DNA of 44,920 nucleotides from an uncultured Bacilli bacterium (GTDB lineage Bacteria > Bacillota_I > Bacilli_A > RF39 > UBA660). The notes beneath the pieces are model-generated. The model saw only the letters and a list, made by a program, of their open reading frames with translations. It did not search any database and had not been told where the DNA came from. A program made the translations under genes and the position numbers. Below are positions 40,376-43,350 of the stretch, one piece after another. The stretch's first letter is position 1; the number at the start of each line of letters is the position of its first letter. The stretch lies in assembly GCA_944329395.1 (NCBI GenBank), contig CALVIF010000001.1:1-44920 (forward strand), in the 5' to 3' direction.

Positions 40376-40552
40376 TTATCACTTTTTTTAGAAAAAAAGT
40401 GTTTTTTCATATAAAATACGACATTTTTCACCAAACAAAATTCCCAAATTATACAAATATTCAAAAAAAAACACTAATATTGGAATACAAAATATAATTA
40501 AAATTAATAATATAATTTTCTTATTATTTATTAAATTTATCTTAATGGACAC
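40376..40552 (-). CDS. candidate 58-aa single-TM immunity-type ORF
   Basis: The GTG start overlaps the last codons of peptide B. Sequence: (M)SIKINLINNKKIILLILIIFCIPILVFFFEYLYNLGICLVKNVVFYMKKHFFSKKSG. The RBS is weak (GGA). Confidence 0.25.
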
Positions 40553-40707
40553 AAATTTCCATCAATAATTCTTCTAATTGAAGAACCAGTACTTTTACCT
40601 GCTTCATATAATATTTTAATTAAATTTACCATTCCATTTAAAACAGTACCAGAAATCGTCGTACCACCACATACTTCTTTTAAAACTAAATCATTACACT
40701 CTCTCAT
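40537..40707 (-). CDS. double-glycine-leader bacteriocin precursor B (56 aa)
   Basis: MRECNDLVLKEVCGG|TTISGTVLNGMVNLIKILYEAGKSTGSSIRRIIDGNLCPLR. GGGAG lies 8 nt upstream. It is below the ORF-track size cut-off. Confidence 0.7.
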   Translation of the reverse strand: MRECNDLVLKEVCGGTTISGTVLNGMVNLIKILYEAGKSTGSSIRRIIDGNLCPLR

Positions 40708-40729
40708 TTAAATTACTCCCATCATCACT

Positions 40730-40867
40730 TTAATTATTACACTTATTAGGATTAGTAAATCCTTCCAAAACACCAGATATAAATATAATTATTGCAGCTA
40801 TAGCAATTCCAACCCAAACAGAACCACCTGTAATATTTTCTAATTCATTATCAGCTAAACATTGCAT
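40730..40867 (-). CDS. double-glycine-leader bacteriocin precursor A (45 aa)
   Basis: MQCLADNELENITGG|SVWVGIAIAAIIIFISGVLEGFTNPNKCNN. The leader matches the L-12/E-8/L-7/I-4/GG consensus. The ATG abuts the upstream stop (TAAATG). Confidence 0.8.
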   Translation of the reverse strand: MQCLADNELENITGGSVWVGIAIAAIIIFISGVLEGFTNPNKCNN

Positions 40868-41275
40868 TTATTTTTCCTCCCATATTAATTTAAATATTTC
40901 ATAAAGTTTAATTCTATTAGTCATAAAAACAAGATCAATAACATCACCTTCTTTTTCTGCCTTTAAATCACATTTTATATAAAAAATATCATAACTTTCT
41001 TCATTCTTAACTAAAGCATTATTAATAACTTTTTCAATATCATAATTATATTTTTTACCATCAATATACAAAAATGAATTTTTATATAAGATTTTTTTCT
41101 CTTCATTAGATAAAACAATTTCAATCAAATCTTCTTTAAAAACAATTCCCCTAATTAAATAATAATCATTTATTTTATAATAAAAGCTAAAAATAGTCAT
41201 AATAACGATTACTAATAAAAAAAACATCGTTAAAAATAAAACTCCACTATTTTTCTCATAATTTCTTACATTCAT
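40868..41275 (-). CDS. small single-TM bacteriocin-export accessory-like protein
   Basis: N-terminal TM plus a beta-rich domain of about 90 aa. It overlaps the 3' end of the ABC exporter. The assignment rests on context only. Confidence 0.45.
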   Translation of the reverse strand: MNVRNYEKNSGVLFLTMFFLLVIVIMTIFSFYYKINDYYLIRGIVFKEDLIEIVLSNEEKKILYKNSFLYIDGKKYNYDIEKVINNALVKNEESYDIFYIKCDLKAEKEGDVIDLVFMTNRIKLYEIFKLIWEEK

Positions 41276-43350
41276 TAATTACTCCATTTTCTAATTTTAA
41301 GACCCTATCAAACAATTTTTTTTCCTTCAATCTATGGCTAATAACAATAATAGTCTTACCCTTTAAATAATCAAAAATTTTTTCCATTATTAACATTGTT
41401 TTACAAGAATCAATTTGACTAAAAGATTCATCAAATATATAAATATCACTATTTTTAATTAAAGATCTAGCCAAAATTATCCTTTGCCTTTCACCATTAC
41501 TAAAATTACTACCATTCTCTTCCAATAATTGTTTATACCCAAGATCATCTGTAATAAAATCAGAAACACCGGTAATATCAACAATTTTTAAAAATTCTTC
41601 TTTTAAAATATCTCTTCCCAAAGTAATATTATTATAAAGAGTATCTGTAAATAAAGATTCTAAATTACTAACATAAACAATCTTTTTTCTTAATACATCC
41701 AAATGATAATGATTAATATCAATATTATTAATTGATACATATCCAAACGGAACTTCAAAATATCTCATTAATATCTTCATTAATGTACTTTTACCACAAC
41801 CGCTTTGACCAGTTATTAATATTCTTTCACCAGGAAAAACATTTAAAGATAAATTGTTAAACAAAGATTTATTATATACAGAATAACAAAGTCCATTAAA
41901 TGAAATAATCCCATCAAGCTTACAAAATAAATAATAATTACCTCCTTGAAATTTTTCACAATTAATTGTAAAAATATCTTCTAATCTTACATAAGCCAAT
42001 TTAAAATTAGAAAAATCACTTAAAAAAATTAATAAACCATTAAATGAACCTAGAAAATAATTAAAAACACTTTGAAAAACTATTAAATCGCCTAGACTGA
42101 GTTTATTTTTTATAACCAAATAACTACCATACCCCAAAATAACAAGTAATAAAAAGTTATTAATACTTTTTCTTATAAACAAAAATATTTCATTAATAAA
42201 AGAAAAACTATAATTATGTTCCAAAAATTTTTTATACTTAAGTAAAAACTTATCAAAAAACATTTTTTCCAAATGACAATTTTTAACTGCATCAATATTA
42301 GAAAAAGATTCAACTAAATAAGAATTAACCCGATCACCAATACAATTTATTTTTTTCTTATAAATTTTATTAAATAAGCTAAAAATAATCTGAACTATAA
42401 ATAAAATTAAACAAAAACAAAATATTACCACTGAAAGAAAATTACTAATTTCAAAAAGAAAAAAGAAAAATATAAAAATACCAATAAAATCAGTAACAAA
42501 AAAACAAAAAATCTCAATTAAAAATGTTTTTATAATATTTAAATCCTTTAATCTTGAAATTACTTCACCAGTTGTTCTATTTTTATAATATAAATAAGGA
42601 AGTAGAATTATATGTTTATATGTTTTAAAAGTTATAGAAGAATTAATTAAGCTTTCCCATTTTACAAGTAAAATATTTCTAAAAAGTAATGATATTTCTT
42701 TAAATAAATATATATAAAAATAAATATATAAAAAAAAGATAAAAACTAATAACCAAAATGGGCATAATTAATTTAAAAGTAATTGCTAATTTTAAAAGAT
42801 ACTTAAAATGAAATGAAATAATTATTTGAAATAAAAAAGATATTATCGACAATACTATAATTAATATTAAAATTTTTCTTTCACTTAAAATAAATTCTTT
42901 TATAATTTTTAATATTACATTTTTTTTCGTTAAAAAAGGCAATTTTTTTAACGGCTTTAAAAATATATAATTACAACTAGATATTAACTTAAATTCACCA
43001 AACGAAAGTTTTCTTTTTCCCTTTGCAGGATCCATAATAACAATTTTTTTATTTTCATAATTAATCCCATAAATTACTACAAAATGTTTATAACTTTTAT
43101 TTATTATTATATGTGCTATACAAGGCAAGTTAGTATTCTGAATGTTTTCTATATCACCACTTACACCAGTAGCAATAAAACCTATTTTTTTTGCAGCTTC
43201 AATTAAATTAAAAGCCGAAACGCCAAATTTATTAGTATTAGTCATTTCTCTCAATAATTCTTTAGATATATCTCCACCATAATACCTCATAATAGATAAA
43301 AGGCAACATACTCCACAATCTTTTATACCATCCTGTAAAACAACTTTCAT
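41256..43350 (-). pseudogene. C39-peptidase-domain bacteriocin ABC exporter (SunT/LagD/ComA type), frameshifted
   Basis: C39 residues are present (QDGIKDCGVCC, HFVVIY, MDPAKG). The TMD contains ..NRTTGEVISRLKDLNIIKTF... The NBD has GQSGCGKST, FSNGERQRI, IYIFDESFSQID, VISHR. The two reading frames overlap in 42700-42769 around an A8 run (42730-42737). Confidence 0.85.

Follow-up and report, generated by a model that had tools for sequence, protein, structure and literature searches.

The locus considered here raises the question whether the small genes beside rpsU in an uncultured Bacilli bacterium form a bacteriocin system and, if they do, of what kind it is, how it came to lie there and how it is controlled. 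It is part of a contig stretch of 44,920 nucleotides (CALVIF010000001.1, referred to as the window), which has about 25% GC and carries nearly all of its genes on the minus strand. A previous sequence-only reading had proposed a pair of double-glycine peptides with an exporter and a mini accessory protein, wedged against the rpsU promoter, and all of its open reading frames (ORFs) were recovered on the minus strand at the coordinates it gave. We consider it probable, with considerable room for doubt, that these genes form a five-gene operon of class IIb type, i.e., for an unmodified two-peptide bacteriocin, consisting of a C39-ABC (ATP-binding cassette) exporter, a 135-aa protein (acc), pepA, pepB and an additional gene, orfC. 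An antimicrobial function of peptides A and B is what we infer from this arrangement. The operon is inherited vertically beside rpsU in a clade of gut Bacilli that are uncultured, low in GC and spore-forming. The earlier interpretation is thereby partly supported: right in kind, it was wrong on the history of the module and incomplete, as orfC and an RNA leader had been missed.

The genes of the operon, which are closely packed or overlap, are:

42700-43350, minus strand: N-terminal piece of the exporter, 216 aa, with the C39 peptidase domain and the first transmembrane (TM) helices, ending at a stop codon made by a frameshift
41256-42714 (ORF piece 41256-42431), minus strand: remainder of the exporter in another frame, with the TM domain and the ABC ATPase
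40868-41275, minus strand: acc, the 135-aa protein, with an N-terminal TM helix and a strand-rich domain
40730-40867, minus strand: pepA, 45 aa, a 15-aa double-glycine leader and a 30-aa mature peptide
40537-40707, minus strand: pepB, 56 aa, a 15-aa double-glycine leader and a 41-aa mature peptide
40388-40552, minus strand: orfC, 54 aa, GTG start, single TM helix

The two prepeptides

Both peptide genes are present where the sequence-only reading had placed them, head-to-tail after the 135-aa ORF. PepA consists of the leader MQCLADNELENITGG and the mature part SVWVGIAIAAIIIFISGVLEGFTNPNKCNN, pepB of the leader MRECNDLVLKEVCGG and the mature part TTISGTVLNGMVNLIKILYEAGKSTGSSIRRIIDGNLCPLR. The double-glycine (GG) leaders can be read directly at the claimed positions, canonical in pepA (L-12, E-8, L-7, I-4, G-2, G-1) and looser in pepB (L-7, V-4, GG). 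Shine-Dalgarno sequences precede both genes, which are separated by 22 nt in the window and overlap by 4 nt in three other loci (L021, L024, L027). With a strict GG-leader regular expression no further candidate substrates were found in the window.

Being short and missing from the ORF track supplied for the earlier reading, the two frames might be taken for chance open frames in AT-rich DNA. This is refuted, and we give it practically no weight. By a degenerate-pattern scan with one genome per species the module was detected in at least 27 species-level metagenome-assembled genomes (MAGs), which are labelled as uncultured Bacilli, Erysipelotrichaceae or 'Mycoplasma sp. CAG:877'. Both frames stay open and keep their length between species that share as little as about 40-45% identity, GG is invariant in pepA and present in 27 of 28 pepB sequences (one has AG), and hydrophobic residues recur at positions -4, -7 and -12 of the leaders. 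The leaders drift between species, with about equal proportions of nonsynonymous (pN) and synonymous (pS) differences, and the mature parts are conserved, with a pN of 0.14-0.39 vs a pS of 0.42-0.83. The mature peptides are under purifying selection, and the synonymous excess extends over at least 27 species; the coding conservation in relatives, on which the sequence-only reading had made its proposal depend, is thus established. PepA is intact in 25 of 27 species, the copy of L054 being cut by a contig end and that of L055 being disrupted, and pepB in all 25 species where the region is present. Gene callers already list both genes in public assemblies, and protein searches returned relatives with 62-77% identity for pepA and 75-77% for pepB.

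Invariant columns are GG, F, S-G-x-x-x-G, P and C in pepA, and the second G of GG, G-x-x-x-G (G37, G41), RR and C in pepB. Mature A is hydrophobic and essentially a TM helix, mature B is strongly amphipathic with a hydrophobic moment (µH) of 0.6-0.76. The description of A as hydrophobic and of B as amphipathic and cationic is accordingly correct for the window, where pepB has a charge of +3, but the cationic character does not extend to the family, in which the mean charge is -0.6 for A (range -2 to +1) and +0.6 for B (range -1 to +3).

Each mature peptide has a single invariant Cys near its C-terminus (40736-40741 in pepA and 40537-40551 in pepB, minus strand). In pepA, 1-7 variable residues come after it. 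In pepB it is the fourth residue from the C-terminus in 28 of 28 species, in a CaaX-like position, with the end CPLx in 27 and CSID in one. That the CPLx end is a mere by-product of the overlapping orfC start was ruled out, since it is kept in seven species without orfC. The invariant Cys could mean an interchain disulfide or a modification.

The check with bacteriocin and leader hidden Markov models (HMMs) that had been suggested gave a narrow result. The pepA prepeptide reaches 22.3 bits with TIGR03949 (lactobin A/cerein 7B; cutoff 21.5), a model that 21 of 25 orthologues match, and 26.6 bits with NF038034 (lactococcin G-beta/enterocin 1071B), which is below the cutoff of 37; all 25 orthologues match the latter at E<1, the best at E=2.2e-06. 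For pepB there are sporadic matches of the leader only. When the leaders are removed, mature A and B have no match in Pfam or NCBIfam and none to TIGR03949 or NF038034 at E<=10, so that these scores reflect the leader and a low-complexity glycine-rich, hydrophobic signal, not homology of the mature peptides. The sequence-only reading had recognised neither mature sequence, and A and B represent new families.

Weak leader-region matches also exist to BlpC, ComC, the EntF induction factor and pheromone VP1, and one or both peptides could on this account be quorum-sensing or induction pheromones of the ComC/BlpC/EntF type. We regard this as very improbable. All of these matches are below cutoff and confined to the leader, the mature peptides with 30-43 aa, a full TM or long amphipathic helix and an invariant GxxxG are unlike short pheromones, and neither the module of the window nor any of the 27 loci contains a histidine kinase or response regulator. 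The statement that kinase, regulator and pheromone genes are missing overlooked the structured RNA leader and terminator described below.

Exporter, 135-aa protein and orfC

The N-terminal part of the exporter matches Peptidase_C39 (PF03412) in Pfam with 114 bits and also TIGR01193, NF045998 and TIGR03796. Its catalytic set can be read in the sequence as Cys12 (DCG), His (KHFVV) and Asp (IMDP), which bears out the claim that all catalytic residues are present. The C-terminal part matches ABC_membrane and ABC_tran in Pfam and contains the ATPase motifs GQSGCGKST (Walker A), FSNGERQ (signature) and IYIFDE (Walker B). Three-frame translation revealed one frame change, and the break is a 16-bp tandem duplication, TATATATTTATTTTTA, at 42715-42730 (minus strand). 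Exact-protein look-ups showed that more than 20 metagenome contigs, which come from different samples, carry this locus, and conspecific contigs are 97.6-99.5% identical to the window over 4.6 kb. The duplication is absent in all five aligned conspecific contigs and private to this assembly, and complete conspecific copies of the exporter are all called as one gene of 692 aa. The frameshift that had been listed as a feature of the system is therefore real as a break but found in one assembly, and should not be taken as a property of the system. Programmed frameshifting, which was considered because the exporters of the window and of L087 break at about the same residue, was rejected: the one break is a 16-bp duplication, the other a 1-nt indel in an A7 run, and nearly all copies are in frame.

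The duplication may reflect a true mutation, or else an error of assembly at a repeat that is very rich in AT. If it is real, this strain would make the prepeptides and be unable to process or export them. An exporter split in this way is what one would expect if the module of this genome were a decaying pseudogene cluster devoid of present function. We hold this to be distinctly improbable, not only because of the possible artefact: outside the duplication the module hardly differs, if at all, from that of about 20 conspecific contigs in which the exporter is intact, pepA shows zero substitutions among strains, and pepB shows two nucleotide differences among the compared strains, its protein being identical in L017, the one divergent strain that was translated.

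An intact exporter orthologue aligns with TIGR01193 from end to end (5-688 of 708 positions, 313 bits) and likewise over its whole length with NF045998 (297 bits). It thereby resembles peptidase-containing ABC transporters (LagD, ComA and PCAT1, covered by TIGR01193) in the C39 Cys/His/Asp set, the Walker motifs and the end-to-end alignment, and in sister strains it may be described as a divergent but complete transporter of this type. A second resemblance concerns the Mycoplasma pair of the Mbov_0121 C39-ABC protein (NF045998) and MAG1140 (NF045999), with which the exporter aligns and half of the acc proteins match weakly. Unlike the members of TIGR01193, NF045998 and NF045999, all scores here are below the curated cutoffs of 523.85, 500 and 35, respectively. 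A literature search on Mbov_0121 and MAG1140 returned no more than a table entry.

The 135-aa protein Acc consists of an N-terminal TM helix and a strand-rich domain of about 100 aa and is present in 27 of 27 species. The first 20 nt of the gene overlap the end of the exporter, and its stop codon abuts the ATG of pepA; acc is translationally coupled to the exporter. Acc has no match in Pfam, and a profile search of PDB sequences was empty; in both sets there was no similarity of the HlyD/LcnD type. Weak matches over the full length to the Mycoplasma MAG1140 family (NF045999) were obtained for 14 of 28 members (best E=0.0011). A word-index homology search returned only near-identical proteins and one at 57% identity; the distant orthologues were taken from the loci and not from the protein search. 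AF2 models, from the single sequence and from a 3-sequence alignment, were poor with a predicted local distance difference test (pLDDT) score of 52. The mini accessory protein of the sequence-only reading is thus present as a small membrane protein, but the term 'accessory' is assigned by position only.

The gap between pepB and rpsU had been regarded solely as the spacer of the rpsU promoter. This 226-bp spacer encodes orfC, which starts inside the ...LCPL(E/K/R)* codons of pepB with an overlap of 16 nt. The frame is open and alignable in 21 species (46-55 aa) and absent or truncated in seven. The N-terminus of the protein is basic and is followed by a single, LP-containing TM helix and by [FY]xxGxxxGxxxRxL[YL], with an invariant GxxxG and a conserved R-x-L-Y, and pS exceeds pN in 184 of 210 pairs. 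The region is unstructured as RNA (z=-0.36). OrfC has no family match in Pfam or NCBIfam and two representatives among 1.84 billion proteins. In the four orfC-less species that could be searched on both sides, there was no second copy within about 9-12 kb per species. By position, size and its own GxxxG, orfC is a candidate immunity protein; that seven species with pepA and pepB lack it means that immunity cannot universally depend on it.

CibAB/CibC of Streptococcus pneumoniae and brochocin-C (BrcA/BrcB with the small BrcI) are two-peptide bacteriocins in which the next gene downstream encodes a very small immunity protein. Both are under competence or three-component control and have their exporters encoded elsewhere, and CibABC is conserved species-wide and not strain-variable. 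The candidate immunity gene directly downstream of the peptide pair is the feature shared with these systems; the peptides themselves have no known sequence similarity to theirs.

Class IIb bacteriocins are characterised by adjacent peptide genes in one operon, GG leaders of 15-30 residues, a dedicated ABC transporter, GxxxG motifs and an immunity gene in the operon (PMC2850506). Four of these features are found here, namely adjacency in one operon, 15-residue GG leaders, the C39-ABC exporter and a GxxxG in each peptide, so that the class IIb-like anatomy that had been claimed is supported; the exporter counts by virtue of the intact 692-aa sister copies, the copy of the window being disrupted. 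For the fifth, the immunity gene, orfC is the candidate. An LcnD/HlyD-type accessory protein, which is common but not universal in class IIb, cannot be recognised in Acc.

The closest comparison is the lactococcin G-type operon, which comprises lagA, lagB, the immunity gene lagC, lagD for the C39-ABC exporter and an accessory gene (PMC2850506). Both systems have two adjacent prepeptide genes with 15-residue GG leaders and a GxxxG in each peptide, an exporter, an accessory gene and a small membrane protein in one operon, and one strongly hydrophobic peptide beside an amphipathic one. The present locus differs in the gene order (exporter-accessory-A-B-C), in its near-neutral peptides with mature sequences unrelated to any family model, in an accessory protein of 135 aa that is not similar to HlyD/LcnD, and in an immunity candidate of about 50 aa that is missing in seven species. 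It is also chromosomal, fixed and vertically inherited throughout the clade, with a structured RNA leader for control.

Promoter and structured leader RNA

Upstream of the exporter, the following elements were recognised:

43524-43561, minus strand: operon promoter region, read from the sequence, with a promoter scan hit at 43549-43522
43449-43517, minus strand: structured 5' leader, with the closing stem P1 GGAAGC (43517-43512)/GCUUCC (43454-43449) around internal hairpins
43406-43434, minus strand: intrinsic-terminator-like hairpin AAGAAAACUU/AAGUUUUCUU with a U-run; it follows the leader immediately and lies 55 nt upstream of the exporter start
43365-43370, minus strand: Shine-Dalgarno sequence AGGAGG within the conserved block GAATAATAAAGTAGGAGGTG

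The promoter region contains an extended -10 (TGtTATATT, 43532-43524) and an inverted repeat, GTAAA (43561-43557)-N7-TTTAC (43549-43545), which overlaps the -35 (TTGTTTACA). The layout GTAAA..TTTACA-N17-TAT(A/G)xT recurs upstream of the leader in many species, and a promoter function is suggested. The inverted repeat at the -35 likewise recurs in many species, e.g., as GTAAAC-N5-GTTTAC in L021, and could be an operator for a DNA-binding regulator.

The order of promoter, P1, internal hairpins, terminator hairpin with U-run and conserved block is shared across species. Leader and terminator together span 43406-43517, and the leader has the form of a three-way junction. The full leader of the window folds at z=-3.5, with 0 of 200 shuffles as good, and all 21 species leaders fold singly to P1, internal hairpins and terminator, the mean z of the P1-closed part being -2.6. 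About 12 different complementary P1 sequences occur, among them GGGAUAA/UUAUCCC, GGGGGU/ACCCCU, AGAUAACUAU/AUAGUUAUCU, AAGGAUCAG/UUGAUCCUU, GGAAGUG/CACUUCC and GGAAGAC/GUCUUCU. Every species leader has the terminator hairpin and its U-run in this position, and the hairpin helix covaries. A generic terminator scan of 39.9-43.7 kb found none, AT-rich stems failing its GC rule.

Five leaders of the sister type, the type with the conserved loop AUUAUCACGCGUUUGG, served to build a covariance model, R1. It has exactly one hit per locus in 11 species. In the R1 alignment, which is fitted to the model and hence favours its pairing score, 95% of the cells are paired and both partners have changed in 17 of 24 pairs; 0 of 500 shuffles reach this, and slid controls drop to 40-57%. 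A metagenome scan with a 17-nt core yielded 55 loci, nine of which were accepted by R1, and in all nine a homologous exporter follows at a distance of about 50-90 nt, in most cases about 55; in the longer contigs this exporter is followed by acc, pepA, pepB and S21. All occurrences of the leader, in 11 species genomes and nine metagenome contigs (e.g., L034 664-775 and L053 271-384), are thus in front of this operon. The leader of the window is reduced, having no ACGCG core, and is not detected significantly by R1; its own support consists of fold, position and limited covariation of inner P1 and is weaker than that of the sister type. The two leader types could not be aligned with MAFFT, nor could the P1 arms.

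With promoter, P1, internal hairpins (with the conserved loop in the sister type), terminator and ribosome-binding site, and with helices supported by covariation, the region resembles riboswitch or attenuator leaders. It differs from known riboswitch leaders in that Rfam 15 gave no relevant leader match, neither at the gathering threshold nor at E<=10 for the window or E<=1 for three sister loci, and in that no consistent antiterminator pairing was found by eye. The leader may be a riboswitch, a protein-dependent attenuator or a separate small-RNA gene. Transcription would start at about 43517 and have to read through the structured leader and the terminator, so that expression of the operon would be conditional on a signal.

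Inheritance of the module and its possible role

The sequence-only reading had described the module as wedged in beside rpsU, possibly as an indel. This is contradicted by the order exporter-acc-pepA-pepB-rpsU-(variable gene)-yqeY-yabP-yqfD, which was found in 25 of 25 informative loci among the 27. Identities go down to 44% for the exporter and to 42% for YqfD, and pairwise distances correlate with r=0.80 between exporter and YqfD, r=0.71 between exporter and YqeY and r=0.63 between YqfD and YqeY. Neither peptide was matched in 72,556 plasmids. The module is thus an old, vertically inherited chromosomal part at the edge of the rpsU/yqe/yqf block. The gene just upstream of the exporter varies among species and is transglutaminase-like, Band_7 or a C39_2 peptidase. 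The hosts have sporulation genes and weak best matches to Mycoplasma-specific families (Mbov_0121 ABC, MAG1140, MAG6410 lipoprotein), which is consistent with the uncultured Mycoplasmatales-related orders that have been described (PMC10868615).

Four independent lesions of the module were found in single genomes or contigs. Besides the 16-bp duplication in the exporter of the window, these are a TAT-to-TAA nonsense codon near the C-terminus of the exporter in L025 (approximately 6365), the 1-nt indel in the A7 run of L087 (approximately 3600-3620), and foreign genes, for a replication-like protein and a restriction-modification methylase, inserted in pepA of L055 (6111-8063). Such independent lesions argue against an essential housekeeping role, and their pattern fits a non-essential, socially exploitable trait, as for a bacteriocin.

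Several of the above results weigh against a bacteriocin: the mature peptides match no known family, their near-neutral charge in the family is unlike that of the usual cationic class II peptides, Acc is not similar to HlyD/LcnD, seven species keep pepA and pepB without orfC, and a fixed, vertically inherited locus over such deep divergence is unusual for bacteriocin loci. The main rival explanation is that the peptides are exported or put in the producer's own membrane and have a lineage-wide physiological role, as a membrane complex or a sporulation or envelope signal, rather than in killing, and that the C39-ABC pump only matures and secretes them. This is an unlikely but serious alternative. 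It is favoured by the same chromosomal site in 27 species-level genomes, with the order from ABC exporter to rpsU in all 25 visible cases, by a divergence of the module that parallels that of YqfD and YqeY as closely as these parallel each other, by the peptides' near-neutral charge and lack of plasmid copies, by the dispensability of orfC in seven species, by a dedicated structured RNA leader in place of peptide-pheromone three-component control, and by the sporulation-gene neighbours spoIIIAH, a gerM-like gene, yabP and yqfD. The loss-of-function alleles in single strains, however, mean that the module is dispensable, its layout of two peptides, GxxxG and a small TM protein is the class IIb pattern, and conservation alone is compatible with killing, given the species-wide CibAB/CibC. 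The class IIb reading is supported by the same independent single-strain knock-outs, which are expected of a dispensable social trait, and we prefer it.

For a class IIb bacteriocin the proposed course of events is as follows. The exporter would cut each prepeptide after Gly15 and, probably aided by the 135-aa protein, export A as a TM-type helix of 30 aa and B as an amphipathic helix of 41 aa. In a target membrane the two would pair via their GxxxG faces, probably at a receptor that is a membrane protein, and make the membrane leak, and orfC, in the position of a class IIb immunity gene, would protect the producer.

The flanking genes and signals of the module are:

44457-44792, minus strand: 111-aa multi-pass membrane protein with a weak DUF5684 match, upstream of the transglutaminase-like gene
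43562-44488, minus strand: transglutaminase-like gene, its stop codon (43562-43564) abutting the operon promoter region
40341-40369, minus strand: rpsU promoter TTGAAA-17-(TG)TATAAT, from the promoter scan, 11 of 12 matching, TG-extended
40107-40310, minus strand: rpsU, with S21 (Pfam) and TIGR00030 matches
39079-40044, minus strand: 321-aa ORF between rpsU and yqeY, no family match

The transglutaminase-like protein carries a signal or TM segment at its N-terminus and has a likeness to the Mycoplasma MAG6410 lipoprotein family (82 bits). The rpsU promoter begins about 20 nt past the orfC stop, which is spanned by an AT-only hairpin, CACUUUUUUU/AAAAAAAGUG (40376-40402, minus strand), lying just before the rpsU -35. 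Since this hairpin has no U-run, the operon may read through into rpsU. The slot of the 321-aa ORF is a variable position within an otherwise rigid synteny block: the ORF has 26-48% identity in some species, is absent in others and is duplicated in L024. Elsewhere in the window, a T-box leader (RF00230, 21164-21361, minus strand, 117.7 bits) is the sole Rfam match at the gathering threshold.

Bacteriocin loci are normally patchy, mobile and under peptide-pheromone control. Here a two-peptide system has kept a single chromosomal site while at least 27 species diverged, and it is preceded by a dedicated structured RNA leader. A far-reaching formulation, which we put forward tentatively and think rather doubtful, is that the operon is a core vertical trait of an uncultured Mycoplasma-related clade of gut Bacilli, gated by a new class of cis-regulatory RNA (three-way junction, loop, terminator, only before this exporter), and that A and B, with one invariant C-terminal Cys each, might act as a disulfide-linked heterodimer or in a physiological role other than that of a bacteriocin. 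The helper set is minimal, consisting of the 135-aa partner and the candidate immunity protein of about 50 aa, and may serve as a minimal exporter system in which to study the role of the 'accessory' protein. The two peptides stand for two mature-peptide families that are new, from gut bacteria that are abundant but uncultured; both are short enough to be synthesised and tested, and the signal of the orphan riboswitch-like RNA would show when these peptides are deployed.

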